From: Dipteris shenzhenensis
Taxonomy: Eukaryota
Assembly (NCBI GenBank): GCA_047967505.1
Contig: CM106538.1
Length of the DNA stretch: 64,000 nucleotides
Reading direction: 5' to 3' (one strand)
In this document: one piece after another, positions 3,087 to 64,000 of the stretch
How the letters are laid out: each line of letters starts with the position of its first letter
Numbering within the stretch: the first letter of the stretch is position 1
Notes under the pieces: generated by a model
Told to the model about the DNA's origin: nothing
Seen by the model: the letters and a program-made list of their open reading frames with translations, nothing else
Databases searched by the model: none
Translations under genes and position numbers: made by a program

Positions 3087-3914
3087 ACCACCCCTCACTC
3101 CACCACTCTTAGCTACACCCATCGTCCTAGCAAGACTAAGAGGGGCTCTTATTGTGGTGGGAGTCTAAATGTAGATGAGACTATACATTCCCACCTCCCC
3201 CACCATGATGAGACGCAACTTGGTACTGTCCCCATGCCTTCTCGCTCCACAACCCCCACCTCCACCCTTGGTCCCACCCAAAGTTAACCCACCACCCCAA
3301 GCTCCACCACCACTCCTATCTCACACGTTGCTTTCATACCAGAGCATATTACCTCTTGGACCTTTCATATAGTCTCAATCAAATGGCAAAGATTCTTACA
3401 GACTCAAGGAGAAATTTATAAACCCCTCGAGATATGAGTTAGTGATGATTACATGAAAGCTTGCATGGGCTTTGTACTTTGACATCATAGATCAAAGATA
3501 GGAAATAGGCTAAAGGCTAGACAGAGTAGGCCTTCGTGGGCAACAAAGAAGATTGGACACATGCCAATAAAGATCTTAGAGAAACATTGGACAAGTTTGA
3601 GAATCAAAGGAGGGCTATGGCAAGATGGCGGAACACCGTAGGTACCTTGCACCTAGGAAGTGGCAAAAAGGTATGCTATGAGGCATGGGTGGTAAGTCTA
3701 TTTCTCTTATAATTTATTGTTCTATTTGTTTCATTATCCATATATGGCACTTCATCTAATTATCTTAATTTAAGTCCATAGGAATCTGTGATTTGCCCCG
3801 TCCTCCTACAGACGTGGAGTACAGATATGAAAGGAGATTAGGAGTGATGCCATTTTCTAGGAGCTGAAGCATCAAGGATGCTACATCGATTAGGCTATGA
3901 TGGTCGCTTGCTTC

Positions 3915-4500
3915 TATTAGATATGCTCAATGCCCCACCCTCCTAGTAACCACCAATGGTCCAAGGTGCTCAAGTTGTAAGGCCCCCATATGAGGAGAAG
4001 CCAAGTGTGAGCCCATGGCACTGGATGGATCCTAACTTGCATGTCAAATGAGGTCTATCCAATGAGACCATTGATGGTAGAAAGGTGATTGTGTGGGAGC
4101 CCCTAACTCTTAACGGTATAGGGAATATTCCTTGAATATTCCATGGATGACTAGTCGGTTCCATCGACTAGGTTGACTAGTCAGCTTCACCAACTAGGTT
4201 TGCTCGTTGGTTCCACCGACTACGTTGATCCGACTACCGCCCTCATAGCTATAAAGAGGCGACCTCCCTAGTCCATTGTATTAGATTAGATCTTCCATCA
4301 ACAGAGATCTTCTAGCTAGTAGCTCTTCACCCAGTATTTGTCTAGATCGCCATCTAAGCTCCATTGTGGGAGCGCACGGGTGGATGGAGCCATCATCTGT
4401 ACTACATTAGTATTCAAGGAAAATTTTGTTCATCTCTAGTTTGCTATGTACTTTCTATTCTTTGTTTAGTTTTTGTTCTGCTGCACTATGTAATTTAACA
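3915..4500 (+). repeat. 5' LTR of Copia A
   Basis: Near-identical to 8599-9182; ends TTAACA immediately before the PBS. Confidence 0.95.
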
Positions 4501-4964
4501 TGGTATCAGAGCCCAGGTGGCTCTAACGATCGAAGATAGAAGAGAGGTGAGGGCTTCAATAGCATACAGAGTTATGGCAATAGGAAGCAGCTTAATAGGA
4601 AGCGCTCAAGTTTGGTAATTGCTGCTACACCAACAATCCATGCATTGAGGATTCACCCGCTAGCCTTCACTGAAGGCAAGCTAGGTGGTACGAAGTACAC
4701 TCTGTGGAAGTTTAAAATTACTACTATTCTAGATTCATATGAGCTTCTGGAGACAGTACTAGGGACTGGACCACAAGGAACCACCGGCCCAGCAAATCTG
4801 GGGAGTAAGATACCTTCTAATGCCGACCTTCTACGAGCTTGGAGACACAGGAATGCAGATGCTCTATGTGCCCTAGTTACAAGTACTACTGATAGTGTTT
4901 TGACCTTGATTCAGCATACATCTAAGGCAACTGTGGCATGGAACATATTGAAGATTAGTATGAG

Positions 4965-5393
4965 ATGCGAAATCCTCTTCTAACACACAAGAAAAACTCA
5001 TCGTACTTCATTTTGCTATTTCAAATAGGAAATCGCGAAGAAAACAAAGAAAAAGGCACAAAAGGCCCATATTATATATATTCTATTCTATGTATTGCTA
5101 TAGAAAAAAGATATATTGGACAAACTAGAAATCTTGAAAAACAGATAGCACAGCACCAAACCAATCCTCCATTAAAATTGAAACATGATGTTAACAGGTA
5201 CAAATCGTTCCACTCGAACTTCAAAACATAAATCCTAGCCACTACAAACTTTAAAAGCAAAGCGGATACACTCGAAGAGAAATACATAATAGAACTCAAT
5301 ACAACCGACTTGAAATATGGCTACAATAACCTCAATGGAAATCCAGCATCTACTAAAAAGCCTTACTTTCTCAAAAATAGAGACATAATCTAG
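4965..5393 (+). pseudogene. GIY-YIG endonuclease domain relic inside Copia A gag
   Basis: Reading through one TAA (5229-5231) gives ...PYYIYSILCIAIEKRYIGQTRNLEKQIAQH...ADTLEEKYIIELNTTDLKYGYNN...*. This has the YIY/YIG motifs, conserved His, catalytic Glu and the GYN motif; the usual Arg is Gln. Confidence 0.8.
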
Positions 5394-8300
5394 TATATTA
5401 GAATCCTTTGAATGATTGTACTATCGAGGATAATGTTGAGTGGGCTTTGATGTACAATGATGGTGCTGTACTTGCCAACCTGTGCATTGCTAGAGTACAT
5501 GCAGAGAGAGAAGCTCTCCAACTTGTATAAACACCCCATAATGAAATGAAGCCCACACTCTTTGGGGCATTGTGTTGAGTTCTACTTTGGTATTCCAAGA
5601 AATTGTCTCAGGTGTCCATGCTTCCTTGCACTCCACGTCCAAAAGCATGTCTTAGCCTTGTAACTCCTCCTCCCCTCTCGTCCAACCTTGCACCCCTGGA
5701 GAATTATCTCGCAACTGAGAAGTTTAATGAAGGAGAGACAGTGGAGGCATTCATAACCCGAATCAAAAATCTACGTGACTAGATGGCTGGTGTTGGGATA
5801 CAAAAGACTAGCGAAGAGCTAGCTTAGCGGTGTCTCTGGATATGTCCACCAAGGTTTGATGGATTGGTAACAGCGCTTGACACTCAAGTGAGACCCCAAC
5901 CATTATCATTTGAGGAGTTCTGTGCTTTACTTTATGGAGGAGGAATTGAGGCTTAATGCTCAAGATGGAGGCGGCAATGGGGATGCTGTGTTCTCTACCA
6001 CTACGAAAGGCAAAGGTGGTTCCTCCACCAAAGGTGAGTCCTCTACTAGTGGTGACAAAAAGAAGAAGGGCGGCAAGAAGAAGTTTCAGGGAGAATGCTT
6101 CTATTGCAAGAAGGGCCATGTGATTGCAGATTTCCAAGTCAAGAAAGCAGATGAAAAGAATGGTACCCCGAAGAAGACAAATAAGGGGAAAGAGACAGCG
6201 AACATAGCAAAAGTAGAGTTGGATCTATTTCTGGCCATTGAGGAAGAGTGTTCCTCAATTCAAGAAGCGTCAACCACCACTGATTCAAGGGTGTTGGATG
6301 GTGGTGCCTCCCGTTACATGAACTGCAAGAAGGGTCTATATTGTTCCATGCATCCTCTATAGGAATGCATCACCATGATAGTTGGTAATAACGCAAAATG
6401 CCCTATTGAGGGTATAGGTACAGTTTCATTTGTTTCTATAAATGGAGATGTTAAGAAACTATCTAATGTGTTGTATGTTCCACAAATCAAGAGAAATTTG
6501 CTATCAGTTGCTTCCATAACTGATCTTGACCATGAGGTGAGGTTCAACAAGACAAGAGAAAAAATTCTAGATAGTGCAGGAAATCTTGTTGGCACAGGAG
6601 TAAGGAGGAACAACCTGTATGAGCTAAGTGCTCTCACAGCCAGTCGGCACAAGCAGACTTTGGCACAAAAGATTCGGGCACATCGGATTTGCAGTGTTGA
6701 AGGAAATGCAAAAGCAAAGTATGGTTGCTCACTTACCTGTAGTAGCAGAAATCAAAGAATCGTGTGAAGCTTGCATGATGGGCAAGCAACAGAGAAAGGC
6801 ATTCCCACAAGAAAGCAAGAATAGAGCAAATGCTCCTCTAGAGTTGGTGCATGTTGACTTGTGTGGTAAGATGCCTATGCCATTGCCATGATGGGTAAGG
6901 CAGCTCTATGACCATGATAACCAGATGCCTATGTCTGTTGAGTAGCATGCAGATGGACCAAGGCGGTCTCAGAGAATTGAGGAGCAAAGGAGGGCTTCTG
7001 CTCACATAGTCAATATGGCCTTGATGGCTGAGATTATTGTAGAAGTAAAGGAGCCTACGAGTTTGGAGGAAGCACTTGCAGACCAAGATTGGAAAATGCT
7101 ATGCAAGTAGAATATGATAGCATCATGAAGAATGAAACTTGGGAGCTGGTAGATTGACCACCTAACAGAAGAATATTGGCACCAAGTGGGTTTGGAAGGT
7201 AAAGTACAAGGCCGATGGTACTTTGGAAAAGTACAAAGCTAGATTGGTTGCACAAGGATTTTCACAGGTTGAAGGGTTTGATTTTTAGGAATCTTTCGCT
7301 TCGACTGCCAGAATGACCACTATTCGCACAATACTATCAGTGGCTGCTCATAAAAAGTGGCCAGTTTATCAAATGGATGTTAAATCAACATTCTTGAATG
7401 GTGACCTCAAGGAGGTGTACGTGGCTTAGCCACCTAGGTTTGAAGCCCCCCATGCTAAAAACAAGGTATGTAAGCTAAAGAAGGCTCTGTACGGGATGAA
7501 ACAGGCCCCAAGAGCATGGTACCAATGGATAGACAAATTCTTTCATAAATGAAACTTCAAAATATGTGCCTCACATGCTAACTTGTATGTGTATAGGAAA
7601 GGTGGAAAATCTGCTATTATTGTTCTATATGTGGATGATCTCCTTATTACAAGTGACGATGAAGACATGATCCCGCAGACTAGAAAGGCACTGAGCATAG
7701 AGTTTGAGATGACAGACTTAGGCTTGATGCACTACTATTTGGGGATTGAAGTCTGGCAAGAGCCAGGCAAGATCTTCATCTCTCAGCAGAAATATGCAAG
7801 GGAGATCTTGAAGGCATTTGGTATGTCCAAGTGCAAGGAGATAGCTACACCTATGGAGGTAAATGCGAGGCTATCTATGGAGGCTGCCTCACCACCAGCA
7901 GACATCAGGAGGTACATGAAGTTAGTCGACAGTCTCATCTATCTATCCAACACTAGACCGGACATCAGATTTGCTATTGGCATTTTGAGCAGGTTCTCCA
8001 ATAAGCCCTGAGAGAACTATTGGAATGCAAGGATGTGGGTGCTCAGGTATGTGAATGGCACTCTTGATTATGGCATCACGTATGGTACGGGCACTTCCTT
8101 GGCTCGTCATTGTGACTCAAATTGGGCTAGTGATGTTGATTCTAGGAAATTAGTTTCTGGATATTGTTTCTCTTTAGGTACAGGTATCTCCTCTTGGATC
8201 AGTAAGAAACAACCAATAGTGGCATTGTCTTCTACCGAGGCTGAGTACAAGGCAACATATTTTGCCTGCTTGTGAAGCAGTGTGGCTAAGGAGGATCTTA

Positions 8301-8598
8301 TGGCAAATGGGAGTGCAAGAGGATGAGGCAACTGTGCTGAGGTGCAACAATCAAAGTTGCATGGCCATTGCTAAAAATCTAGTGTTTCATGCATGCACAA
8401 AACATATAGAGATTCAATATCACTATGTGCATGATTTGATCGAGAATGAGATAGTGGAATTGGTCTACTGTCCAACAAGCAAAATGGAGTAGATATCTTC
8501 ACCAAGGCACTTGAGAAGGATCAGCTTCAGGGTCATCTTCAGAGAGTCAGCATTGGGTCGAGAAGGTAGTTCACCTACGGGTGGACATTGAGGGGGGG

Positions 8599-9182
8599 TG
8601 TTAGATATGCTCAATGCCCCACCCTCCTAGTAACCACCAGTGGTCCAAGGTGCTCAAGTTGTAAGGCCCCCATATGAGGAGAAGCCAAGTGTGAGCTTGA
8701 GACATTGGATGGATCCTGACTTTCCTGTCAGATGAGGTCTATCAATTAGACCATTGATGGTAGAAAGGTGATTGTGTGGGAGCCCCTTATTCTAGACGGT
8801 ATAAGGAATATTCCTTGAATATTCCATGGATGACTAGTCGGTTCCATTGACTAGGTTGACTAGTCAGCTTCACCAACTAGGTTGGCTCGTTGGTTCCACC
8901 GACTACGTTGATCCGACTACCGCCCTCATAGCTATAAAGAGGCGACCTCCCTAGTCCATTGTATTAGATTAGATCTTCCATCAACAGAGATCTTCTAGCT
9001 AGTAGCTCTTCACCTAGTATTTGTCTAGATCGCCATCTAAGCTCCACTGTGGGAGCGCACGGGTGGATGGAGCCATCATCTGTACTACATTAGTATTCAA
9101 GGAAAATTTTGTTCATCTCTAGTTTGCTATGTACTTTCTATTCTTTGTTTAGTTTTTGTTCTGCTGCACTATGTAATTTAAC
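8599..9182 (+). repeat. 3' LTR of Copia A
   Basis: Starts TGTTAG after the G-run PPT; matches 3915-4500. Confidence 0.95.
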
Positions 9183-9494
9183 TGAAGGAACACAAATGGA
9201 GACAAAAAGTGAACACCAGTGAATGGATGTGCTCACACACGAAAGCTCCTTCAATAGATAAGAATACAAAGTACTTGGCATATATAGTGACCAAGTAGAA
9301 CATAAAAGTAAACCAAGTACTAGACTAGCCTACAAGGTCATATCTTTGTATATGTCTACAAATCCCCCCTCAAAGATATGACTGAAGTACTCTGGAAACG
9401 TGTCAGAAGTACCTAGGGCACCTAAAGTACCATGGTTGCACAAATTCATCCATCAGGATATAGCAACCTATGGGGTAACACATGAATAACAATG

Positions 9495-11566
9495 TCATTT
9501 TATAACCCCCCCTGACATTGTTGTTATATCTCGTATCCCCAAGCCGTGTCGGTGACGAGTAAAAAGTGGAGCTAACAGGCTTTTAGTGAAGATATCCGCC
9601 ACATTATCCTCAGTAGGACAATAGATAAGATCAATGAAGCCATCCTGTATACAATCCCGAACATAATGATAATGATTCTCAATATGTTTCATGCGGGCAT
9701 GAAAGACAGGTTTTTTCCCAATGGCAATGCAACTCACACTGTCACACAAAATGGAAGTGGCCTCACCATGTTGGGCATGATGCAAATCAAACATAAGCTT
9801 CCTTAACCACATTGCTTCTATAGTGGCTGCGTTTGCTGCTCTATACTCTGCTTCACTAGAGGAAAGAGAAACACGGTCTTGCTTTTTACTGAGCCAAGAA
9901 ATGCAAACTGAACCCAATGAAAAACAATAACCAGTGGTGGATTTTCTATCATCCATATCCCCTGACCAATCTGAGTCTGTGAAACCACTCAGAGAAATGT
10001 CACAATTTGTAGCATAGTGCAATCCATGAGTAAGAGTGCCTTGCAGATATCTGAGAACCCGCTTGGCTTCTTGCCAGTGTGTGACTCTAGGACAATGCAT
10101 AAACTGACTTAGCAACCCAGTGGCATGTGCAATATCAGCCCTGGTAGAACACAGATAGATAAGACTACACACCAATTGTCTGTAAAGTGTGCCATCAAAC
10201 TTCTCTGCTATGTCATGCTTTGAAAGCTTGAGTCCTTTGGTCAATGGAGTGGCCACAGGTTTGCAATTTTCCATCTTAAATTTCTGCAAGAGACTCTTTG
10301 CATACTTTGTTTGGGACATACATATCCCTTCCTGGGTTTGCCAAAACTCAATACCAAGACAATAGTGCAAGAGACCCAAATCTGTCATATCAAATGTCTA
10401 ACACAATGCTATTTTGATGGCTGCAATTTGCTGATTATGACTGCCTGTGAGTAGTATATCATCCACATAAAGAACTAAAATCAGCAAATCTGATTTTTCT
10501 TGCAGAACATAGAGGTTGGACTCTGTATGTGTGTTCACAAAGCCCTGGGACAACAAATACTGATGTATCTTGTGATACCAAGCACGGGTGCTTGTTTTAG
10601 CCCATACAATGCCTTGCATAGCCTACAAACATTGTGTTCTTGTCCTGTAACTTCAAATCCTTGGGGTTGCTGCACATAAACTTCCTCTTGTAAATCACCA
10701 TTCAAGAAGGCAGTCTTGACATCCATCTGAAAGACGGGCCAGCCATAACTTGCAGCAAGAGAGATGACAGACCGAATGGTAGTCATCTTGGCTACCGGAG
10801 CAAATGTTTCCTCATAATCCACTCCCTCCTCTTGGGCATACCCCTTGGCAACTAGCCGGGCCTTGTGTTTTTCAATAGTGCCATCTGCATGGTACTTAAC
10901 TTTATAGATCCATTTGGTACCAACCACATTCTTCCCAATGGGCTTATCAACCAAATCCCATGTGGCATTCCTTTCAATGGAACTAATTTCAGATTTCATG
11001 GCTTCCTGCCATGCGGGATGTTTCATGGCATCCTCAAATCTTTGAGGTTCAGTTTCAGCTGCCATAACTGAAGCCATCAAAGCATAATTCACCTGTGATG
11101 ATGCATTCCTTGTGGCTGTCCTGGTTCTCCCTAAAGTTGGCTGAACATTAGCCTCTCTGAGGGTCAACCGTGCCCATTTTGGGACTGAATTTGCAGCACC
11201 ACCACTGGCTTCAGCCATAGCCTTGAATATCTTGAACCAATAAAACACTTCGGATTTGTTCTTCATGAGGAAGAGCCATGTAAATCTGGAGTAGTCATCA
11301 ATGAAGGTAACAAAGTACCTTGCCCCTCTATGAGTAGTAACATTCATGGGGCCACAAACATCACTGTGCACTATTTGCAATGCTCTTATTGCTTTCACAT
11401 CACCTTTCCCATCCTTTTTGAAAGGTAAGCGGTGCAATTTGCCAAGGGCACACCCTTCACATACTTCATTAACTGGCTGCTGTAATTTTGGCATTCCAAT
11501 AACCATGTTGTTGTTAAACAAATAGGTCAAAGCCCTGTGATGGATATGGCCAAACTGGCATGCCAT
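9495..11566 (-). pseudogene. pol: Copia B pol remnant (truncated integrase, RT, RNase H; frameshifted)
   Basis: HSDVCGP and FIDDYSR, then a jump to the integrase-RT linker; [30 protein letters not shown]. Confidence 0.9.
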
Positions 11567-11604
11567 AAATCACCCTGAGATACACATGATATAGCCATAG
11601 CATG

Positions 11605-13089
11605 CTAATTATAAGGCTGAGCATCAAGCTTGTACAGCCCTTTTTCATAAGTCCCTGTAGCCACAATAGCATAACCCTTTTTAGGATATCTAATCCTGCA
11701 TTGGCTGCCTTGAAACTCTACCAACATATGTTGATCATGAGCAATGGAGGAAACTGAAATCAAATTCTTCTTCAAATCTGGAACATACCAAACATCACGG
11801 ATGTATTGTTTCTTTCCTGAACCATCCAAGAGAATAGGAACATGTCCCACTCCCGTGATATCCTGAGTGGCATCATTAGCACAAACGACATGTCTACCAT
11901 GGACTGGTATAATGTCCTCAAACCAATTTCTATGATGAGTCATATGCTTAGAAGCACCACTATCCAAGTACCAAGGATCAGTGGTGGCCAAAGATGCATC
12001 AATACCCTCTGACACTGGCTCAATAAGAGCATGAGCATGTGTAGCATGTGACATACTAGGCTCCCCCCCTGTGTCAATGATCTCATGATCCACAACACCA
12101 AAGGCAAAGTCCTTGTCATCCTGGGCATAATGTGCATGAGAAGAGGCATTTGAATTTTCAGCAGGTGCCACAGAATTACTGTTTGTAGTCCCCCTCTTCT
12201 TCTCATTAGCAATCCTCTTCTGACACTCGGCAATGTAATGACCAGGCTTTTTGCAATAGTTACATTTACCCTTTTTCTTAGAGGCAGGACTTGCCTGAGA
12301 ACTTGCATTTGCCTCACTTTTGGGCTGAAATCCATTGCTGTTTTTTTTGTGAAAGTATCCTCCTTTTGACTGAAATTTGCCCTTTCCCTGCATAGCAAGA
12401 GCTTGCTCACCTTGGCGAGATGAATGAGCAAAATTAGAGGTTCTTTCCTCTTCTTGCAGGAGCAGCCCTACCAACTCATCAAATGAGACAGGTGCAGCTC
12501 TAAGCATGATAGACAAAGAGGTAACAAAAGTGCCAAATGACGGAGCCAGGCTATTGAGAGTGAGAGTGACCAACTTTCTGTCTTCTATCTCCTCATCAAC
12601 GCCTGCTAATTGATCTCTAAGATCAGTAATCTTAGCAATATGCTCTGCAATTGTTTGCCCTTCTTCCATCTTCAACTCCTTGAGTTGATTTGTCAAAGCT
12701 AGCACTCTAGCTTCATTTTTGACCTGATACATACATGCCAGTTTAGCCCAAGCATCTTTAGCATACCTGCAGGACTTGATAGTAGACATAATGTGCCTCT
12801 TCACTGAGAGGGATATCAAAGATAAAGTCTGGGCATTTCTTCTATCAAACCTCCTTTGCTCCTCCAATAGAGCAGGAGTAGGAGCTATGGATGTAGATGT
12901 GATGGATGAAGATGAACTAGTTGCAGCAGTAGCTGGCCTAGTTTCATCACCACTCACAATGTCCCACAAGCCCTTGCCAACCAAAATATTGCGGAGCATA
13001 AATGACCACAAGGCATAGTTTGATCCTTCCAATTTATCCCCTTCAGTGATAGTGCCAAAGCTTTCAGCAAGAGACATTATTCCTGACAA
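11605..13089 (-). pseudogene. gag: Copia B gag-protease ORF
   Basis: 494-aa ORF with KLEGSNYALW, a Copia gag core, CNYCKKPGHYIAEC knuckle and WYLDSGAS protease; breaks before the integrase. Confidence 0.9.
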
Positions 13090-14584
13090 ATAACTGACAA
13101 GAAGATTTGGGTGTCCAAGAAGCAGGAAAAGAGTGCTGAAGCAAATCGATTTGAAGTAGGAGCTTCCGAGGTGGATGTCAGTTTGATTCGGGGCTGGAAA
13201 TTGCTGAGAAGAGCACCAATGTAGCAGTAGATGAACTCGTATTGAAGAAGATGGCTGCTGCTACTGAGAAGAGCATCAATGCAACTATAGGAGACTGCTG
13301 TAGGTAGTAAAACAGCAAGAGGAGATGCCGGAAAGTGCTGGAAATCAGGGCGACCTGAAGTAGAAGCCCCCGGGCTCAAGGGCGACCTCAAAAAGAGGGG
13401 CGAAGTGAAGGCGACCTATTCGGGCTGAAGTCTGAAAATCAGCAACATTGGTTGTCGACCAAGTCCTGGAGAGAGGCGACCTGAAGAAGACTTCCCAGGG
13501 CAGCAAAAAAACTCAAGTTCTTCACGACAACTGACTGAAAAACGAGCTGGAAACTGAAGTGGGCTGAATGTAGGATTGAGAGCAACATGAGGACACGAGA
13601 GAACTTGCCACAAGACGGAAGGCAAGGCTGAATCTCGATTCAAGTGACTGACGCTCTGATACCACTTGAAGGAACACAAATGGAGACAAAAAGTGAACAC
13701 CAGTGAATGGATGTGCTCACACACAAAAGCTCCAACAGATGTTCAATAGATAAGAATACAAAGTACTTGGCATATATAGTGACCAAGTAGAACATAAAAG
13801 TAAACCAAGTACTAGACTAGCCTACAAGGTCATATCTTTGTATATGTCTACATTAACATCTCCAATCATCATTGTTCTCAAGCATGTTTGATGATACCAC
13901 TGATTTTACAATTAAGGTGTAATATCATTTTTTAAGTTGTTTCATTCTTATGGTAAGCATGTGGAAACCCAAGGTGATATAATGGTAGAGGAGCTTGCAA
14001 ACAGAGACGTGGGGGAGAGAGAGGAGGGCAAGGATCAAGTAGAGATGGAGAGGCCAAGGGATCAAGAAGAGGTGAGGTTGAGTCCAGTAGTTCAAAGGAC
14101 GATTAGTAGTAGTTTTGCCATTTTGTATTTATACACCTTCGGCAATTTTACCATTTTGTATCCCATCTTCAAATTATGTACTACCCTCTTTGTTAAAAGA
14201 AAAGTTTGTAATAAGATGTGATGATTTGAGAGTTTTAAAAAATCCTACCTTGGATGGAATGTTATAGCTCTTACCTTGTAATAAAACACTTACGATAGTG
14301 GGACAAAGTGGGGCTGAAACAAGCCCCATTCTGCCCACAATGTTGGCTCTTTCCCACGGCTTCTACATGAAGAACAGGGTGTTCTAGGTATGCAAGGTTC
14401 CAAGGCCTTTTGTCACCTATAGATATATCATTCTCGTTATTTGTAGTATAGGTGTAGCTTAACACATGAGGTCATATTCCAGTGAGAGACGTAGGCTTAA
14501 GTGTTGGAAGAAAACATTGCGCATGCTTGTGTGAAAGGAGTGTTTTTCTTCATGGTCGGGGTAGTGAACGCTTTCTCCTCCATC

Positions 14585-25304: not shown

Positions 25305-25404
25305 NNNNNNNNNNNNNNNNNNNNNNNNNNNNNNNNNNNNNNNNNNNNNNNNNNNNNNNNNNNNNNNNNNNNNNNNNNNNNNNNNNNNNNNNNNNNNNNN
25401 NNNN
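25305..25404. other. Assembly gap (100 N)
   Basis: Run of N; contiguity across it is not guaranteed. Confidence 1.
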
Positions 25405-28156: not shown

Positions 28157-29636
28157 GATCATTTTCCAATGCATGTTTTGAGTGGAATGAGAGAGCATGA
28201 ACCTTGGAATGTAATCTACTAAATCCGATCTCAAACCCTGGAGTCCCAAACCCTGTTAATAGCACACTGCACATAGAATTAAGTTCCTCTATGAGCTTGT
28301 AGGTATTTCTATATCCACTTTCTTCGTCTACATCACTTGTATGTGTAGTGATCCTATATTACATCCTACTTATCCAAACACTCAATTGCATGATGTAAGC
28401 ATTCTTCCCAAATTGCAAACTTGGGTATGGTACATTATTTGACATCTCATACATGTAGAAAATAGGACATTTACATGAAAAGAATCACATTCACTCAAAA
28501 TTGACTTGAGGTCACTAAAACACTTGCTTCAATTCAATGTTTCCATCTTTGTCCTTAATGCATCCCTTATTTATACAATGAGTCCTCATTGAGTCCCACT
28601 ATATCTGAAGTGGTGCATGGGTGCTTTCCTTTTCTTGGATCCCCTAGGTTGGATCTTCTCGATCAAATTTGCCACCATTTTCATTCAATCACTAACATGA
28701 AATTGGTTGACTGGTTCTCCTATTTTTCCCTCTATTGCTGAATAGAGATTAGCTCTACATCTCAGATCCATAATTCAAATGCCCATAGTTTGACTTGAAT
28801 GTGGTCCAAGTCTCTCTTTAATTGCTTGATCGTCTTCCAAGACTCTTCATTCACAATAGCCAGTTGTGTTTTGAGTGATCAAATCATCTACCCTTGGAGG
28901 ATGCATTACCAACCTCCCACTTCGAATTTCAAGTCTTCCTCTTGAAACTTTGAGTTCCACTTGTGGGCATGAGATTGTTGCATCTGTGTCTCCTCCTACT
29001 ACAATTGAGTAGCATGATGGACCATCTTTGCACAAGGCTTTCAAAATCGTTGGATGCAATCCTTTGTATCTTTTAGATTTTCTAGGCAAATCTCTAAATC
29101 ATGGATTTAGATTGCTTGAGCCATCAAAATCTTTCCTCATAATCCCTATAGTAGCCTCGACCTACCTCAGCATGTCCATCTACCCCTATAAAGCCTAGGC
29201 CTACTCTTATCCATCTGGTTAAAATTCATCTTCATCCTCCTCTTCTTGTACCTCTTCATATTCAGAGGACTCCTCTATAGGTAGGCATTTATCCTACCGT
29301 TTGAGCAAAGGGTTCTAGAGGGAAATCAAAATCTCTATGGAGAGAAGAGATCCTTGATCAATGTTAAGAGTCTTGGATAGGGGCTAAGGTGGCAAAGAAA
29401 TTGGAAGAAAAGAAACTTCCTCCTATATGAACAGGGGACGAGAACTTGACTTATGATAAAAATCCCTCCCGAGGCATCAATAAGCAAGTTGGTAAATAAT
29501 AAAGAAGAAGAATGAATTCTCATTGCAAAACATACATATCTTTGGCAAATAATAAAGAATGTGTAGAATGGTTTTACTAATAATTTGGTACATACTAAAA
29601 AGTGTTGTGGAACCATTCTGTTGTAGAGTCCCCCCC

Positions 29637-29736
<100 letters not shown>

Positions 29737-37736: not shown

Positions 37737-40700
37737 TGTAGGCCATCTTCTGGTGGTTCTAGTGATGTCCTATAGGCCATGGTATGTGCCTTGTAGGCAT
37801 AAATGTAGGCACTTGTAGTGTTAGTGCCCTTTAGGCCACATAGGATACTTAGTCCTATGTGACACCTAGGACACTTAGTCCTAGGTCTAGGTACAAGTAC
37901 CTTGTACTCCTATTTTTCATTATCCTAAGTGTCCTAGGTGTCACATAGGACTAAGTGTCCTATGTGGCCTAAAAGGCTGACGTGACAGACTCGATCGACT
38001 TTTTGCAACTTGCACTCTCTCTTTGCCTATCGATCCTACAGTGGTATCAGAGCAAGGTTTGACTCGTCTTCCTGCCCCAAGACTCCTTGTTGTACCTATC
38101 CGTACTGGTTTCCTATGTCGTACAGATCTGTACCTCCATCGTACTTGTGCAGTACAACTTTCGAATTTGAGCCGCCGTACAGCAATATAGTTGCGTGTCT
38201 GTGACACCGTACGTTAGACTCCGTACACGAGTACTTGTTATGTACATGCGCCGTACTAGAGTCATTGTACTTGCGTTGCCGTACAACTGTACGTATTTGC
38301 GTCGCCATACAACTGTCACCGTACCTGCGCCAATCTACGTATCTTCTGCACCTACATTGCCGTACTGCCCGTACAGATTGTTGTGCCACACTACGTACAT
38401 CTTCCGTACCGGCACGTGGGAACGTATTGTTCCGTACAATTTTTAATACTAGATCCGTACTTCAACCGTACACCGTACGGTGTACTTGATATGTACTTCA
38501 TCCGTATAGTTATTGTACACTGTACTTGAGCTGTCCGTACAGCTAGTACTTCTTTCAAGTGATCCCCGTACAGATGGTTGCACGTACAAGGTTACATTGT
38601 GGACATTGGTATTTTTTGGGGCTTTCAGTTCATTTCAGCTTCTTTGGTTGCAAATTCCTGCAAGAACATTGGGGCTTTGGGATTTGGTCTGCAATTTCTC
38701 GTTTAATTGCAATACATTGGGTTAGATTGGAGTACATTGAGTCAGATTTTCAGACATTGAGTCACTTCTGCAGGACATTGAGTCAGATTTGCATACATTG
38801 GGTCACATTTGCAAAAATTTCAGCAAAATTTGGGGCTTTTCTGCATTTGCCCATTTTTTGGCCTATTTGCCCTCAATAAATTTGGGGCTTTTGCCATATT
38901 TGCTATTTTTTTGAAGTGAACATTGCCTGTCACAGTCACATTTGGGTCAGATCTGCATTTGACCTTTGATTTGGGTCAGAAATTTGCAGATATTTGCTGT
39001 CATTTTTGGACAGCCAGCTTTTTGCAGTGATAGCCTTGAGGCTTTTGGGTTTTCAGGTCTTTTTCAAGGTATCACATTTGGTATGGCTGGGAACAATCAA
39101 GATTTATTTGGAGTTCTTCGTGAAGATGATAAGTTGGATGGCACCAACTATCCGATGTGGTCTTATCTCATGAAACATATTCTTGTTGCAAAGCATTTGT
39201 GGAATATTGTTTCCGGGGCTGATCTGAGGCCCAGCCAATGCTACAGTGGTTGCCTCTACTGCTGGTCCTTCTGCAGGGGGTACTCCTCCTGATGCCTCTT
39301 CCTCTAGCACTCCTGTTGCTGCTCTTCCAACTCAAGAACAGTCAAGATGGGATGCAAGAGATGCAAATGCACATTCATGCATTGCTTTATCATGCAAGAG
39401 AATGATTATTCCACCCATCCGGTCTTGCAGGACAGCAAAGGATGCTTGATAAATTGGCTTCTCTCTATCAGATTCGCAATGAAGATCGTGTTGCATATTT
39501 GAGAAGGCAATTACAGGAAGTCAGTCTGAATGAAGGTGAGTCAATGGATGCATACTTGACAAAGGTCAAGGACCTCGTGGAACAGCTTGCCAACATTGAT
39601 GCGGTGGTACCAAATTCACAGCTTGTTAGTGCCACATTGAATGGACTGCCAGATGCATATCAAGGGTTTGCTACAACCCTTTGATTAGTGGCCATGGGTA
39701 ATCCAGACCACTATTCTTTTGATCAGCTAGTTACTTTGCTTTTGCAGGAAGAGCAAAGTAGAGCTAATAGACAAGCCATTATTCCTGATCATGCATTTGC
39801 TTCACAGCAGACAGGAAGAGGCAAGGCTTCCAAGCCTATGGGCAAGCCAAAATTTGTGCATAGCAGTTGCAATTCCTCCCATGCATCTAAAAATACAGCA
39901 GATAAGGCAAAGAAGAAAAGATGCAACTATTGTCGCAAGCCTGGACATGACATTTCAGAATGCAGGAAGTGCATTGCTTCAGAGAAAAAGAAAGCAGGAT
40001 TGACAGTTAATGCCTCTCATGTTATTGAATCCCATGAGCCAGAAGATGCTTCACATGCACATGCTCTTCAAGATGATTGGGCATGGGCTGTCCATTGCTC
40101 ATTTGATCCATCCAAAGCTGATGCATTCTTTACTGCTAATGATGCTCAGTCCTGGTACTTTGATAGTGGTGCTTCCAAGCATGTCACATCTTGCAGACAG
40201 TTGTTTCATTCTTTAGCTGATGCACCTCGAGGGGGAACTGTTACATGTGCTAATAATGCTTCATATGCTGTAAAAGGAGTTGGAGATGTGCAGCTCACAT
40301 CCATTTCAAGCCATCCTGTCACTCTGACAAATTTCTTTTTATGCTTGGCATTGAAGTCAACTTGATTTCAATTTCAGCAATTGCTACTTCAGGTTTTAGA
40401 GTGATTTTTGATGGCTACAGATGTCTAGTTTATGATCTTCGTGATGACAATGCCATAGTTCTCACTGGCATTTTGGCAAAAGGGCTTTATCACCTTGATC
40501 ATCATTTAGCTGCACTTTCTATTGAAGCATTGGCTATTTCAGATTCACAGCTTGCTGAAAGTCATCTTTGGCATGAGAGAATGGGCCATCTCAATTATAG
40601 AGCTCTTGCAAAGCTACATTAACAGCAGATGGCAAATGATGTACCTCAGACTCACACAGTTTCCAAACATGTGTGTGAGGGTTGTCTTTTGGGTAAGATG

Positions 40701-43160
40701 CATCGATTTCCTTTTCAAAAGAATTGTCCAAAACTCTTACAAAGGAAATTGCAGCTAGTACACAGTGATGTCTGTGGCCCAATGAGGACAAATGCCATTG
40801 GGGGGTATAAGTATTTCATGACTCTCATTGATGATTTCATAAGATATTGCTGGGTATATCCTTTAAAGGCTAAATCTGAAGTTTTCTTATGCTTTCAGAG
40901 ATGGCTGAATATGGTTGAGAATGAATCAGGATGCAAGCTTGTCACCCTCAACACAGATGGGGGGGGAGAGTATATGTCAAAGGAGTTTGATGCATTTCTG
41001 TCTTCACGGGGCATTATTCACTCATGCACTTCACTAAGCAATAATCAGCCACAACCTCATGCTGATTTGCAGGTTTCTCTTCCGGTACAAAATGATCCCA
41101 CTACTCATGATGCAGTCATTGAAGAAAGAGCTGTCAATAGACAGCAAAGGCAAGTTCCCAGATGGCTTCTTGATACATTGAGGGACAGCAACAAGATCAG
41201 CCTTTTGCTGCCCGGACAAGATCAGGGAACAGACAGCATGGTCACTTCCTTGAGTTTGCACTCCTTGCTACAGCTTGCAATGAAGAACCTCTGTGCCATA
41301 AAGATGCTTTTGACAGCAAAGAGTGGATGGATGCAATGAGAGCTGAGTTACAATCTATTGCCAAAAATGACACATGGAAATTAGTAGATCTCCCTCCCGG
41401 CAAGCATGCCATTGGAATGCGGAGGGTCTACAAATTAAAAAGGAAATCTGATGGCAGCATAGATCGATACAAAGCCCGTCTTGTTGCAAATATGCCCAAC
41501 AACAAGGCATTGACTTTAAGGAGACATTTGCTCCCACATCCAGGATTACTACCATTAGATGTGTCATTGCCATTGCAGCCCATCATCATTGGCAAGTGCA
41601 CCAACTTGACATCAAGACCGCTTTTCTTCATGGGGATCTGCAGGAAGAAGTCTATGTCACACAACCTCGTGGCTTTGAGGTTGTTAATTCTGAAAATAAG
41701 GTATGCCGGCTTAGAAAAGCCCTTTATGGTTTGAAGCAGGCACCCAGGGCATGTATGCCAAAATTCATGCACACTTACTATCCCTTGGTTTTCAGAATAG
41801 TCCCACAGAACCCACTCTTTATGTCCGTGGGAGTGGATCTGATTTTTTAGTGCTGATTTTATATGTGGATGATACGCTTATCACGGGCCCAGATACTCAG
41901 CAAATTGCAGCTTTCAAGGCTGATTTGCAGCAGGTTTTTGAAATGTCAGACATGGGACAGCTCCATTATTATTTGGGCATTCAGTTTGCTCATGTTAAGG
42001 GGGGTATCATGATGTCTCAGTCCAACTATATTGGACAGGTCCTTGATCGTTTTCAGTTTGAGGATTGCAAGCCAATCTCTACTCCAGTGGACCCTGGCTT
42101 CAAATTCTTAGCTCATGATGGGAGCCCACCATGTGATATCACTCTATATCAGCAGGTTGTTGGATGCCTTATTTATTTATGTCACACCAGACCTGACTTG
42201 CAGTATGCAAAATCTCAGCTCAGCAGATTCATGCACATGCCCAGTTCACAGCATTGGCAAGCAGTGAAGAGAGTCTTCAGATATCTCAGAGGCACTCAAG
42301 ATTTAGCCCTCTTCTATAGTGATCAGGGTTCAGTTACCATGCATGCTAACACAGATAGTGACTGGGCAGGATGTTCCGACACCAGAGTGTCACATACTGG
42401 CAATTGTTTTTTGCTTGGCAATTCATGCATCTCTTGGCTCAGCAAGAAGCAACCAACAGTTGCCACATCTAGCTGTGAGGCTGAGTACAGGGCAGCTTTC
42501 ACCGCTACAGTGAAGTGTGTTTGGCTTCGACAGTTACTTACAGATCTTGGTATTCGCCAGACATATTCTCTACACTGACAGCCAGAGTGCTTTGGCCATT
42601 GCACGTAACCCAGTGTCTAATGCGCGTACCAAGCATATTGAAGTTCACTATCATTATGTTCGGGAGCGGTTGTCAGCAGGAGACATAGAGTTGTCCTATC
42701 TTCCCACAGAGGACAACATAGCAGATATGTTTACAAAGGCACTTCCTCGTCCCAAGTTCGAAGTCTTCCGACAGGCTTTACACTTGGTTCCTTTTGTTAC
42801 ATGATGTGACATCCCTTGTACATTCATAGGTGGCTATATCCTTTTGGATGAACATGTGCCACCATGACCAGAAAATACCAGGTACTCTGAGACGTTTCCA
42901 GAGTACTTCAGCCCATCCTATGGAGGGTGGTTTGTAGGCCATCTTCTGGTGGTTCTAGTGATGCCCTATAGGCCATGGTATGTGCCTTGTAGGCATAAAT
43001 GTAGGCACTTGTAGTGTTAGTGCCTTTTAGTTTACATAGGACACTTAGTCCTATGTAACACCTAGGACACTTAGTCCTAGGTCTAGGTACAAGTACCTTG
43101 TACTTCTATTTTTCATTATCCTAGATTTTGACGTGACATACTCTATCGACTTTTTGCAAC
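37737..43160 (+). mobile_element. Ty1/Copia LTR retrotransposon C (integrase C-half deleted; 3' LTR truncated)
   Basis: 5' LTR 37737-38040 (TGTAGG...CTACA); PBS 38042-38053; gag KLDGTNYPMW and CNYCRKPGH; protease WYFDSGAS; RT YVDDTL; RNase H SSCEAEY; 3' LTR from 42933. Confidence 0.93.
38090..38590. repeat. CGTAC/GTAC-rich array in Copia C leader
   Basis: About 30 GTAC tetramers in 500 bp by manual count, mostly as CGTAC. Confidence 0.9.
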
Positions 43161-50300: not shown

Positions 50301-53300
50301 TAGTTAGTGAACTAACTGCGGTTAGGGGGAAAAACCTCTTAAAGAGGGAAAAGTGCCCCTAACTAGCTTATTAAATTACATTGGTCACTGCTGAATTATA
50401 TCTATAATTCTAACACCCCCCTGCAGTGCCAATGTCATGTACAAGGCTGATCAATCACCAAACGGATATAAGTTTAGGGCACTGCGAAATGCCTCAAACT
50501 TTTCACGTGGTAGTGCTTTGGTGACAATATCTGCAACGTTGTCATGTGTGGACACAAAGATCATACTGATCTCTCCTGCATGCAACTTCTCTCTGACGTA
50601 GTGATAGTGAACCTCAATGTGCTTCGTGCGAGCATGAAACATTGGATTCTTTGCCACTGCAATGGCACTCTGACTATCAGTGAGAATTGGAGAAGGACCC
50701 TCCAATCATAGATGAAGATCAGCAAATAGGCATCGCAGCCAGACACATTCAACTGTTGCTGTGAAAGTTGCCCTGTACTCAGCTTCACATGATGAGGTAG
50801 CCACTGTAGATTGTTTCTTGCTCAGCCAGGAAATGCAAGATTTACCCAAAAAGAAACAATTGCCACTAGTGGACTGCCTAGTGTCATAATCACCAGCCCA
50901 ATCTGAATCACTGTAGGCATGCATCTGCAAGTCACCCCCCCTGGGAAATAACAAGCCAAAAGACTTCGTGCCCTGCAAATAACGGAAGATGCGCTTAACT
51001 GCTTGCCAATGCATAGTTTTTGGGCTGTGCATATACCTGCTCACTTGAGATACTGCAAATTGAATATCAGGTCTAGTGTTGCAGAGATATATGAGGCATC
51101 CAACAGCCTGACTGTAAGATGTGGCATCAACTGATTCTCCTACATCATGCATTGTGAGTTTCAGCCCCGGCTCCATGGGAGTGGCTATAGGCTTACAATC
51201 ATGCATGTTAAATCTGTCCAAGAGTTTCTGCACATACTTGGACTGAGACATAATAGTGCCACGTCTCTCTTGAGAGAACTGGATCCCCAAATAAAAGTGA
51301 AGCAGCCCCAAATCTGACATGTCAAAGGTGGTCTGCAAATCAGCTTTGAAATCTGCAATATTATCTTCATTGGACCCTGTGAGCAGTAAGTCATCGACAT
51401 AAAGAAGGATGACTAAAATTCCCCCCCCATCCATCTTGATGTAGAGAGTGCTCTCAGTAGGACTATTGTGCAGCCCCTTGCTGGTCAAAAAGGCATGAAT
51501 CTTGGCATACCATGCACGAGGGGCCTGTTTCAGCCGATACAAAGCTTTGCTTAGCTTGCATACCTGAAGTGCATTTGCTGTAATTTCAAAGCCTGGAGGT
51601 TGTTTGACATAAACCTCTTCCAGCAAGTCTCCATTTAAGAATGCTGTTTTTACGTCCAACTGATGAACATTCCACTCAAAATGTGCAGCCATTGCAATAA
51701 CAGATCGGATGGTGGTCATTCGGGATGTAGGAGCAAATGTCTCCCCATAATCTATGCCCTTTTTCTGAGCATAGCCTTTAGCAACCAGCCTTGCCTTGTA
51801 TCTGTCAATGGAGCCATCTGGCTTCCGTTACCTTGAAAACCCATCGTGTACCAATGGCATGTTTACCTGGTGGCAAGTTTACGACATCCCAAGTCTGATT
51901 TTTCTTAATGGACTGCAACTCATCGTGCATGGCATTCATCCAATGCACATTGTCCTTTGCTTCTTCGAATGTTGCAGGCTCCTCCTCATCGAGAAGAGTA
52001 CCTGCATAATTTGATTCCACTGAATTAGCACCTTCCATGTGCCTTGCTGCACTGCGAGTCCTGCCAGGTAATGGAGCATCAATCTTACTCTCTCTGAGAG
52101 TCTGTAACAGCCAGTTTGGGACTGTTTTTGCTGCATGTATGTCTGCAATTTCTTGCTGAACCACTTGTTCCACTGCCTGTGGAGGTGGCAAGACACCTTG
52201 TGGCTGAACTGGAGCATCGGGAGGTGGCTGTAAATTCTAATTTGCATTAGAATATCAGCAGGGGAACCCAAAGCAATGGGTAGTAACCCCTCAAAAACAT
52301 CCTTTGAAGAAGAAGGCATATGAAATTCAGCCTGAGTGTGAGCTGAATTTTCTGCAAATATCACATCTCTACTGACAATGATCTTGCGTGTAGCAGGATT
52401 GTAGAGACGGTACCCCTTGCTTTCTGCACTGTACCCAACAAATATGCACTTAATTGCCTTATCTGAAAACTTATGCCGAAATTCAACTGGCACATGAGTA
52501 TATGCAAGGCATCTAAAGACTCGGAAATGATCCACTGAAGGCTTTCTCCCATTCTAGACCTCATAGGGTGTTTTTGTTTTCAAAGCCTTAGTGGGAGCCC
52601 GATTTAAGATGTAGTTGGCACACATCAGACCTTCAAGCCAGAATTTGTGAGGCATGTGTTTGCTTTTCAGCATACATCTGTCCATCTCCATAAGAGGTCT
52701 ATTTTTTCTCTCAGCTTTGCCATTTTGCTGAGGGGTCAGCCTCAGTGTGAGCTGATGCACAATACCCTTGCCTTTCAGAAAAGCATCAAAATCTGCAGAC
52801 AAGTATTCCCCACCTCTATCTGTGCGCAACGTCTGTATCTTGAGTCCGGTTTCATTTTCAACCATGGCTGAAAAGTGTTTAAACACCATGAACACTTCTG
52901 ATTTGTGCTTCAGCCCAAAGACTCAAGTGAAATTGGAGTAATCATCAATAAAAGTACCAAAGTAGAGATGACCACCCAATGATGGAGTCCTCATGGGACC
53001 ACAGACATCACTGTGTATAAGCTGTAATTTGCGGACAGCTTTAATTGAACCATCCTTTTTGAAGGGGAATCTATGCATCTTGCCTAAAATGCACCCTTCA
53101 CAGGCATGTGGAGGAGGTATCTCAAGAGGTGGCAATGCATCAACCATAGAGTGCTTCTGAAGCGTCATCACGTTGTTGTAATGCATGTGGCCATATCGGG
53201 CATGCCATAATTCTGCATTCTGCATGGCAGCAGTAGGAGTAGAAACTGCAAGAGCATGGGCTGCTCTTTTCTCAAAAAGATCAAGCTGAAAAAGCCCACG

Positions 53301-55757
53301 CAGCAGAGTACCAGATAATCTCAAGGCATAATCATTTTCCCTGTCTCGGACATCACATTTGTCATCCTCAAAGATGACCTGAAATCCAGCCCTGTTAAGA
53401 GTGGACACCAAAAGAAGATTCTTGGTGATACCAGGCACATATAAGACATCTGAAAGTCTGAAAACTGAGCCATCAATGGGAGTAAGCTCAACTTCTCCTG
53501 TGCCACGTACTGAATATGACGAGTTATTGGCACAAGTGACTTTCTTACCAACGGGAGGTGGATGCAAGGAAGTAAAGAGACACTTCCTAAAAGTGATATG
53601 CTTGGATGCACCGCTGTCAAAATACCAAGTATTCAGTGTTTCATTGACACTGAAAGCAGATGCATCCGTAGAAGAGTCATAACTGCAAGTCAAAAATGCA
53701 TATGTATCATCATTACAAGTGGCTGTACTATCCCGAGCATCTGGAGCAGCCAGCCTAGAAATCTGAAATGCAAGATAAAAAGGCATAATCCTGTCCAACA
53801 AAGTTGGCTGCAGCATCCCCACTGTCAGATGCATGAGGAGCTGAATCTGAAACAACCATACTGGAGCTGTTTTTCTTCTCTTTTGCAAGCCTTTTCCTGC
53901 ATTCTTCAATGTGATGACCTGGCTTTTTGCAGTAATGACAAAAACCCTTCTTCTTGGGCTTATTTGCATCATTTTTAGCCTTTTGTGAAGGCTGTCCTTA
54001 CCCACTGGAAGGCTGATTTACTGATGTCTTTGCCTGTCCCTTTCTTTTTGACTTGAACTTTGAGAGCATAGCTTGTTCACCTGCACGTGAAGCCAAGTTT
54101 TTCCTGGTCTGCTCTTCCTGAAGCAGAAGTCCTATCAACTTATGAAAAGTGAGAGGATTTGCACCCCCCCTCAATGATAAGCTCAGCGAGGTATGAAAGC
54201 TGAGATAAGACTCAGGAAGAGAATTCAGAGTGGTGTTAATCATCTCTGAATCAGGAATTATCTCATCTATGTTCAATAATTGCTCTCTGAGATCTTGTAG
54301 CTTTGTGAGGTGGACTGGCATGGAGTCACCCTCTTCCATATGTGTATTACTTGCCTTCGAGGTCTTACACGACCGGATATGCGGAATGATAAATCTTTTC
54401 ACTGAAAGAGAGATGCATGACAAAGCTAAGGCATCTCGTGAATCCCATCTCTTCTGCTCTGGAGTAGTGGCTTTAGTTGCACCAACAACTTGTTCTGCAG
54501 CTGCACCCTGTGCATGACCTCTTCCACCTCCTTGTTGAGGAGGGGTATTAGGTGCCATACCTGCTGGTCGGATCTCACCCCCATTCACATAATCCCATAA
54601 ATTGCGAGAAATCAGAATATTGCGTACCATAAAACTCCAGAGGGAGTAGTTGGTACCATCCAACTTGTCTTCCTATGAAAGACCACCGAACTGGAAATCA
54701 TTCTGATTTTGCTGGGCCATATCTGAGAAAGAGATTAGTAGATACAAGACTGAATTCCCTTACTGGGAATGAAATGCACAACTCCCAAAAAACACAGCCA
54801 AGCACTGGCTGTAAATGCAACTCAGATTTTTGCACTTGCACTGTCATAATTCTGTCCAAGCATAAAAAAACTCTCCAGAATCTGCCAAAAGTGCTGCAAA
54901 ACACTTCAAGAAAGGCAGTATGAACTGAAATGTCCAAAGTTGCTCTCCCAACACAAAAGCCCCAAAATAGGCTTGAAATTGCAACCAGAAAGGGGCAAAT
55001 TGATCAAAAGCCCCAAATGTTACAAGAATTGCGCTCTGTCTGCAAAAGCCCCAAATTTCACTGCGAAATTGCAGTGTAATTACAAAATCCCTAAATTTCT
55101 TCAAGAAATTGTACTGCAGAATTGAAAGCCCCAAATTTCGAGCTTGAAATTATCTGCAAAGTCCCAAATTTTGTCTGCAAGATTGCAAGTAGAACCAAAA
55201 AGCCCCAAATTTCTGGAGCAGATTCTGCAAATTGATTGCAATGTCTGCAACAAACAGGATGCGCCAAATGTACTCCCAAAAACTGACCCAAATAATGGCT
55301 GTCTGCAAAATGTGCCTGCTTAAGATCACCTGCAAGGTACAGCTTGTGCGCAGGTACAAAGTGTACGGCCAGGTACGATCAATGTATGGATTGCAGGTAT
55401 GATTGGTACGTACGGCGATGATGCAGGTAAGGTTGCAGGTGTGAGCAGGTACAGCACGTACGGCAGGTACGCGTTGGCACAGCAGGTACAGTATGGTCAA
55501 ACAGCTCTGTAGATCAGGTACGTACGGCGTTGTACGGGGACAATTTGTACAGTCGTACGATCGCGAAGTACGACGAGACTATAAGTACGGCTCTGATGCA
55601 AAACGGTACGGCGACGTACGGATGATGATGCAGAAGGTACCACTGATACGGACTGCATAGGTACGGTGGGTACGGCAGAGTACGGGCATGTACGGACGAG
55701 TGGCACAAGTGCAGTACGAAACTGTACGTATTGATTAGGCTACAGGTGCAACCTTGT
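50301..55757 (-). mobile_element. Ty1/Copia retrotransposon D (full integrase, frameshifted; 5' LTR and PBS lost), in ACK intron 2
   Basis: gag DGTNYSLW; protease WYFDSGAS; complete integrase HSDVCG, TDRGGE, QNGKAER, CIFVGYS; RT YVDDLL; RNase H; PPT 50416-50421; LTR edge at 50415 (left boundary approximate). Confidence 0.9.
55330..55740. repeat. GTACG-rich array in Copia D leader
   Basis: Dense GTAC/GTACG motifs, equivalent to the array in Copia C. Confidence 0.9.
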
Positions 55758-63800: not shown

Positions 63801-64000
63801 TCACCCGTGTGACAGACCCCGTCTTGCTTATGCCGCAATAGTTGCATCTCCACTTCTTGGAGCCATCGCCTCCTTTATAACTATCCAGGAGGGAGACATG
63901 CACCCAATAAGCATCTCTCGGCATTGAGGAGGATGGAGAGGTGAGAAGGAGGATGGAGAGGTCACAAGTGACTCGTGAGAAAGGATGGGAGGTAGACTGT
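60817..64000 (-). mobile_element. hAT DNA transposon (3' end at 60817; 5' end beyond the window)
   Basis: Abrupt break in Gypsy pol at CATAGTTACCAG; subterminal AAACGG repeats 60831-60891; transposase gene inside. Confidence 0.92.
61363..63924 (-). CDS. hAT transposase, 3 exons (63924-62465, 62298-61983, 61845-61363; 752 aa): BED zinc finger, DUF659-type core, dimerisation domain
   Basis: WRCNYC...KDHLAG; VTDNGSN; WTPCASHCLDL; CERTWS; KRNRL. Both introns are GT..AG and phase-compatible, with no internal stop. The first catalytic Asp reads Asn (LCNGWSD). Confidence 0.9.

Follow-up and report, generated by a model that had tools for sequence, protein, structure and literature searches.

A dead stand-alone GIY-YIG nuclease gene inside the gag region of a defective Copia retrotransposon of Dipteris shenzhenensis

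The GIY-YIG nucleases (superfamily PF01541) share a catalytic domain but are found with different partners and in different genetic surroundings. The orthodox I-TevI-like homing endonucleases are defined by C-terminal DNA-binding modules (NUMODs) located behind a linker, while the proteins of the Slx1 and MSH1 type have no C-terminal Asn and carry RING or MutS partner domains (PMC1564403); the nuclease of Penelope-like elements is characterized by its CCHH motif, two Cys of which lie between GIY and YIG, and is fused to a telomerase-like reverse transcriptase (RT) (PMC8557442). Free-standing GIY-YIG genes are common in the giant viruses, polinton-like viruses and virophages of eukaryotes (PMC12220804), and mitochondrial linear plasmids, which frequently carry GIY-YIG domains, have been reported in land-plant nuclear genomes (PMC10583447). 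As for the retroelements bounded by long terminal repeats (LTRs), abnormal template switching and gene capture of the Bs1 type have been described in plants, also for the Veju and BARE-2 elements (PMC13317346). The subject of the present analysis is a GIY-YIG gene lying in the gag region of a Ty1/Copia element in Dipteris shenzhenensis (GenBank assembly GCA_047967505.1, contig CM106538.1); the window mentioned throughout is the whole stretch of 64,000 nucleotides that was analysed. The overall reading that we favour, with a confidence that is evenly balanced, is that a foreign and complete GIY-YIG gene was captured passively, by a non-homologous route, in the gag of this Copia element.

The insert is one complete small gene in sense orientation, made up of a leader, an open reading frame (ORF) of 122 codons and a trailer, and it is flanked by the two parts of the interrupted gag:

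4540–4976, + strand: N-terminal part of gag, ending in YEMRNP (PF14223 profile positions 5-70; matches residues 72-171 of the gag of the neighbouring Copia element)
4977–5680, + strand: foreign insert of 704 bp, around which the gag residue counts close; present as a single copy in the window
4977–5024, + strand: leader of the insert, 48 bp, 31% G+C, open in the gag frame
5025–5393, + strand: dead stand-alone GIY-YIG ORF, 122 codons plus TAG, assigned from PF01541, its relatives, their alignments, the structural model and the match to I-TevI
5394–5680, + strand: trailer of the insert, 287 bp, 44% G+C, with no recognisable coding or RNA family and with stops in all three forward frames
5681–6130, + strand: C-terminal part of gag, beginning SNLAP-LENYLATEKF and holding two in-frame TAG stops (PF14223 profile positions 85-149 at 5681-5932; aligns from residue 189 of the neighbouring Copia gag)

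The identity of the encoded protein is based on motifs, profiles and predicted structure. An earlier sequence-only reading of the same DNA had placed, in the frame of the gag codons YEMRNP, a GIY-YIG domain with YIY, YIGQT, H, E and GYN; indeed, the frame reading YEMRNP (from 4959) is open into the domain, all of these motifs are present (E84 and N101 being the Glu and the Asn of GYN), and the match to PF01541 (E 3.2e-9, 37.4 bits against a cut-off of 22.6) is far beyond chance. That reading had the domain encoded by an insert of about 720 bp; the domain is encoded there, and the nuclease ORF occupies only 5025-5393. The ORF ends with the TAG at 5391-5393, in the same alignment column as the end of 7 of the 28 aligned relatives and about 24 residues after GYN, leaving no linker and no DNA-binding domain. 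At the other end, the ATA at 5025 is no more than one residue away from the Met of the closest relatives P0002, P0003 and P0070; the ORF has no ATG of its own, and upstream its frame contains a single ATG, which encodes the M in gag YEMRNP. An in-frame TAA is found at 5229-5231, and a Q occupies the column in which R is nearly invariant among the relatives, so that the window copy has the motifs and the fold of the superfamily with Q in the Arg column. The nuclease gene is dead, having no start codon of its own, an in-frame stop and a Q at the catalytic-type Arg column; together with the frame shift of gag at 4953-4959, the stop and the R-to-Q change had been read earlier as the marks of a dead copy, and all three are there.

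The structure predicted by an alignment-based model (predicted local distance difference test, pLDDT, 88.9) has the expected GIY-YIG fold, and its best solved matches are the I-TevI catalytic domain entries 1mk0 and 1ln0 (template modelling score 0.74-0.79 on the target, root mean square deviation 1.9 A), with no structural match at E<=0.001; the I-TevI catalytic domain is also the best solved match by profile (E 2e-9). TIGR01453 is matched with E 6.3e-7 and 29.6 bits, which is under its cut-off of 56.05, and phage homing-endonuclease families match too; among viral models, the predicted structure is best matched by GIY-YIG proteins of chloroviruses, mimivirids and phages. The base composition separates the nuclease from its surroundings: leader and ORF have 31-33% G+C (33% in the ORF), the trailer 44% and the Copia element 44-45%. 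In the trailer and on the opposite strand none of five ORFs matches Pfam, and the search for a source of trailer or leader elsewhere in the window returned chance-level matches only.

HMMER, run exhaustively against 1.84 billion representative proteins, retrieved 199 relatives of the window ORF at E<=1e-3, of which 15 remain at E<=1e-10; none reaches E<=1e-30. At the top of the list P0001 has 143 amino acids, 49% identity and E 2.8e-21, the nearest relatives are 49-52% identical, and the best 150 matches fall into more than 100 clusters at 50% identity. Most relatives are short, with the common motifs YIY..C, YIGQT, R..QH, PP-x-RM-x2-D, LE..YI and GYN followed by a short tail; the traits of the family are a length of about 95-145 amino acids, H-x3-PP-x-RM-x2-D after YIG and a C-terminal tail like YWFLK-R-LI, and the window copy fits this short family, but with NPPLKL replacing the PP-x-RM motif. 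In a tree of 154 rows, namely the window copy and 153 database proteins (P0038 was excluded as a low-complexity false match), the window copy lies on a side of 112 rows, 109 of which have almost nothing behind the domain; 36 of the 42 rows on the other side have long C-terminal extensions like those of classical homing endonucleases, and the split between the two sides is weakly supported (79). By its length, motifs and catalytic domain, the window gene belongs to a large family of GIY-YIG proteins that are short, stand alone and are of the homing-endonuclease type, with a catalytic domain like that of I-TevI; we know of no name for this family. The earlier suggestion of an undescribed plant GIY-YIG mobile family captured as foreign DNA holds as regards the complete small gene and the large short family; mobility of the family, or its belonging to plants, is conjectural.

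Of the 153 relatives, 18 that are longer or stand out in other ways were scanned, and no retroelement domain was found in any of them; a word-index search scored none of 47 candidates for longer forms, neither of two candidates at near lengths, and 7 of 2998 candidates when combined with alignment; tblastn against phage records gave no match at E<=1e-3, and PADLOC returned nothing for the window copy. In the Atlas, look-alike clusters of a generic GIY-YIG kind were all that was found; their labels, which name giant viruses, phages or bacteria, are a weak lead. In three pairs of relatives (P0003 and P0070, P0011 and P0149, P0042 and P0049) one member has the appearance of a decayed or frame-shifted form of the other, which suggests that in some genomes the short family exists in several copies and is decaying.

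When the locus is set beside the described systems, the catalytic domain is like that of the I-TevI-like homing endonucleases, but the NUMODs and the linker of that class are both absent from the window ORF; moreover, the I-TevI-like genes are housed in a group I intron or a conserved host gene, or lie next to one, whereas the window copy lies in a retrotransposon gag with no intron RNA match. Penelope-like elements likewise have a GIY-YIG nuclease within a retroelement; the window copy, however, has a single Cys between GIY and YIG (the CCHH motif is missing, as had been noticed before), is a stand-alone ORF with its own stop and is accompanied by an RT of the Copia type (RVT_2). Unlike the Slx1 and MSH1 type, it has the Asn of GYN, which is invariant in its family, and Slx1 chains match it weakly. 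The genes of giant viruses, polinton-like viruses, virophages and plasmids are also small, stand-alone and carried by eukaryote-associated mobile DNA, but no viral or plasmid gene adjoins the window copy; giant viruses, polinton-like viruses, virophages or mitochondrial linear plasmids are possible donors, as leads only. On the retroelement side, the insert at 4977-5680, a non-retroelement sequence between gag halves inside an LTR pair, has the features of gene capture, and it shares with maize Bs1, Veju and BARE-2 a foreign non-retroelement sequence in sense orientation between the LTRs of a defective element. Bs1 differs in containing pieces of three host genes and in being expressed as a novel chimeric gene, while the single small gene found here is whole, lies inside gag and is dead.

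The limits of the insert were drawn from the gag on both sides. As the sequence-only reading had it, gag is split after YEMRNP (4976), giving two PF14223 pieces at profile positions 5-70 and 85-149; the same reading had gag resume with LENYLATEKF at 5696, and here the insert is real but its end is more likely at 5680, with SNLAP as part of gag. Profile position 70 falls near 4953 and position 85 at the E of LENYL, with 14 positions (71-84) between them, and about 14 residues fill this gap when SNLAP (5681-5695, in the LENYL frame) is counted as gag; in the gag of the neighbouring Copia element 17 residues lie between AW and the L aligned with 5696, and the window has 17 as well. Since the profile and the neighbour agree in their residue counts, the insert is most likely 4977-5680, not ending at 5695, and gag has lost no codon; 704 leaves a remainder of 2 on division by three, in agreement with the shift seen from frame 0 to frame 2. 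The insertion is clean, exactly between two gag codons. Its site at a codon boundary and the 48-nt leader put the nuclease in the gag frame, and such an in-frame join is expected by chance in about one case in three, as had been allowed for at the outset. The gag frame shift mentioned above occurs where 5 nt separate 4953 from 4959; in the YEMRNP frame, these include a TAG (4956-4958).

None of the usual marks of a transposed unit was recognised at the insert. The similarity of the CCTCT type at the two junctions was rejected as a target duplication, its score of 12 being matched or exceeded in 48.5% of 4973 random pairs from the window; a short repeat, CCTTGCAC.CC, at 5624 and 5686, near the right junction, was not used, its frequency over 900 bp being about that of chance by our own estimate. 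No terminal inverted repeats were found (the best pair is 72% complementary and has its right arm 80 bp inside the insert), and no poly(A). Helitron ends are defined by TC...CTRR between A and T; by eye, the ends of the insert are not of this form on either strand, and a Helitron was discarded. Rfam, group I introns included, had no match in 4700-5900 even at E<=1, nor any at gathering score across the whole window. No second copy of the insert was found within the 64-kb window, where blastn of the window against itself returned the self match only, and the other Copia-like gag regions seen there are free of it.

The element hosting the insert comprises, besides the two parts of gag, the following features:

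3915–4500, + strand: 5' LTR, located by LTR alignment and motif positions; it starts with TATTAG, against TGTTAG in the 3' LTR
4501–4512, + strand: primer-binding site TGGTATCAGAGC, read from the sequence and directly abutting the 5' LTR
6363–6891, + strand: Pol beta-barrel and GAG-pre-integrase domains (PF22936, E 3.8e-13; PF13976, E 5.4e-14)
7100–8590, + strand: RT followed by an RNase H-like region, with several stops and frameshifts (RVT_2 profile positions 143-243 at 7553-8011)
8599–9182, + strand: 3' LTR, located by LTR alignment, with a purine-rich tract ending GAGGGGGGG just upstream

The two LTRs are 96% identical (22 differences in 584 aligned columns; Kimura two-parameter distance 0.039), and TGGTATCAGAGC presumably binds the initiator tRNA-Met, as is usual in plant Copia elements. 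With two LTRs, a primer-binding site, a purine tract and the domain order gag, Pol_BBD, gag_pre-integrs and RVT_2, the element is of the Ty1/Copia kind, whose full order is gag, protease, integrase, RT and RNase H, and what it lacks of that kind are the rve core and the 5-bp target duplication. As claimed earlier, the integrase core is lost: none of the seven scanned ORFs of the element matches rve or the SH3-like domain, and the distance from the pre-integrase domain to the RT is only about 300 bp. The flanks, GCTTC at 3910-3914 and TGAAG at 9183-9187, do not form a matching 5-bp duplication; mutation or inter-copy recombination could account for these mismatched flanks and for the TA and TG starts of the two LTRs. 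The absence of both integrase core and target duplication makes this an old, deleted, non-autonomous copy, the coding region of which is full of stops and frame changes; the RNase H-like region was assigned only from its likeness to the translation of the neighbouring Copia element, with no Pfam match. This neighbour (9495-13260, - strand) starts about 300 bp past the 3' LTR of the first element and has an open gag-protease frame of 551 amino acids; its gag is uninterrupted (profile positions 3-168 in one stretch), and its rve profile runs from 4 to 65 of 102 and then straight into the RT.

With regard to the origin of the insert, the nuclease gene is very probably passive cargo with no part in the movement of Copia. 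The completeness of the gene, the clean insertion, the lack of a transposon signature, the foreign base composition of the ORF (33% G+C against 44-45%), the lack of fusion relatives, the stops that bar read-through beyond the nuclease and the integrase loss of the neighbouring Copia element despite its intact gag all point to passive capture. As the route we propose, somewhat tentatively, end-joining capture: after a break in gag, non-homologous end joining at the DNA level would have taken up a stray DNA fragment, which may have been a copy of the gene, a complementary DNA, or DNA of an organelle plasmid or virus; a capture of this kind would need no target duplication and could be free of loss. 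The gene, ending at its own stop, severs gag from the nucleocapsid, the protease and the RT.

Several points weigh against this account. SNLAP was given to gag by residue counting alone, with no significant similarity, and both gag matches to PF14223 score under the curated cut-off of Pfam, as is expected of a decayed copy. A gene-shaped insert in the orientation of the Copia transcript would also suit the capture of a messenger RNA (mRNA) by reverse transcriptase, and the loss-free insertion of a whole gene would suit a self-mobile unit. The event may not have been a one-off, the insert being known as a single copy from the 64-kb window; and the insertion may have come before or after the integration of the Copia element.

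The main rival to end joining, possible but in our opinion doubtful, is capture during reverse transcription, in which the enzyme would have left the Copia RNA for a GIY-YIG mRNA packaged with it, entering this mRNA in its 3' untranslated part, continued to its 5' end and then jumped back to the Copia RNA. The sense insert does resemble a tailless mRNA, with its 48-nt leader, whole ORF and 287-nt trailer; this route is also in keeping with the lack of target duplication, inverted ends and poly(A), and with the template switching and Bs1-type capture described in plant LTR elements (PMC13317346). However, two independent jumps landing on adjacent nucleotides, with neither loss nor duplication, would be a rare accident, the junctions show no significant microhomology, and no other copy is known.

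A further explanation, which we judge unlikely, is that a selfish, free-standing gene similar to those of homing endonucleases settled in the gag of a Copia family, spreading through the numerous homologous copies by break-induced gene conversion or by riding on trans-mobilised copies. The precise and loss-free insertion of a complete gene unit and the homing-endonuclease type of the domain speak for it, as do the abundance of free-standing GIY-YIG genes in eukaryotic viruses and virus-like elements (PMC12220804) and the relatives that look like decayed copies of each other, such as P0003 and P0070; on the other hand, the family is devoid of a DNA-binding domain with which to find its target, the gene is single in the 64-kb window, where the other Copia-like gag regions seen do not have it, and no related protein attached to gag was found. 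In a wider form, to which we likewise give little credit, the GIY-YIG gene might be live and selfish in this plant lineage, parasitising the Copia family, or the insert might be a fossil mRNA, derived from a large DNA virus or from a mitochondrial plasmid and trapped in a Copia particle.

An assembly artefact, in which a mis-join or chimeric read would have put unrelated DNA into the Copia element, is very improbable: the assembly does have at least one gap (100 N at 25305-25404), but there is no N near the insert, and both junctions lie exactly between gag codons with no loss, as seldom results from a random mis-join.

Least credible of all, and considered next to impossible, is the proposal of the sequence-only reading that a Copia lineage exchanged its DDE integrase for a GIY-YIG nuclease made as part of gag, for which the missing integrase core and the position of the nuclease in the gag frame (a one-in-three event) had spoken, and against which stand the own TAG of the ORF and the trailer closed in all three forward frames, the absence of a DNA-binding part, the neighbouring Copia element, which lost most of its integrase with gag uninterrupted and no nuclease acquired, the lack of fused relatives in the protein searches and the lack of any such element in the literature surveyed (titles and opening lines of abstracts). 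Since the TAG and the stops in all trailer frames leave nucleocapsid, protease and RT untranslatable behind the nuclease, read-through from gag across the nuclease into pol is impossible in this copy; and since the neighbour combines a truncated rve with an intact gag, the loss of integrase is here independent of the nuclease. The insert as a new Copia architecture is thus not supported.

If passive capture is accepted, the case adds to the foreign sequences found in defective plant LTR retrotransposons and leaves what is known of Copia integration unchanged. To our knowledge, no GIY-YIG gene of the homing-endonuclease type has been described in a land-plant nuclear genome. The titles and opening lines of abstracts surveyed mention no Copia element carrying a GIY-YIG gene, and the available part of PMC5408684 makes no mention of GIY-YIG. 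The locus is also of modest value for the large short GIY-YIG family without a DNA-binding part to which it leads. Were the selfish explanation true, a nuclease gene would be parasitising a retrotransposon family; and a donor, if located in the genome of origin, would make clear whether GIY-YIG genes that are viral, derived from plasmids or self-mobile exist in plants.

The rest of the window contains further mobile elements and simple sequence. Two more Copia-like elements, at 39685-42578 (+ strand) and 50706-54672 (- strand), have gag, pre-integrase, rve or SH3-like and RVT_2 domains, with only about 65% nucleotide identity to the RT of the first element, and a Ty3/Gypsy element at 57278-60915 (+ strand) has the Ty3 capsid, the RVP_2 protease, RVT_1 and RNase H. 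An open frame of 512 amino acids at 62461-63999 (- strand), which runs off the end of the window and matches DUF659 with E 1e-47, looks like a transposase-related plant gene and is one we take to be hAT-like. Long tracts with a pyrimidine-rich + strand occupy 1-1200 and 1736-2400 (the first with 58% T and 32% C) and give runs of Ser, Leu and Phe in all forward frames; the assembly gap at 25305-25404 has CT-rich simple sequence on both sides, and another repeat of the dinucleotide type is found near 29500-29700.

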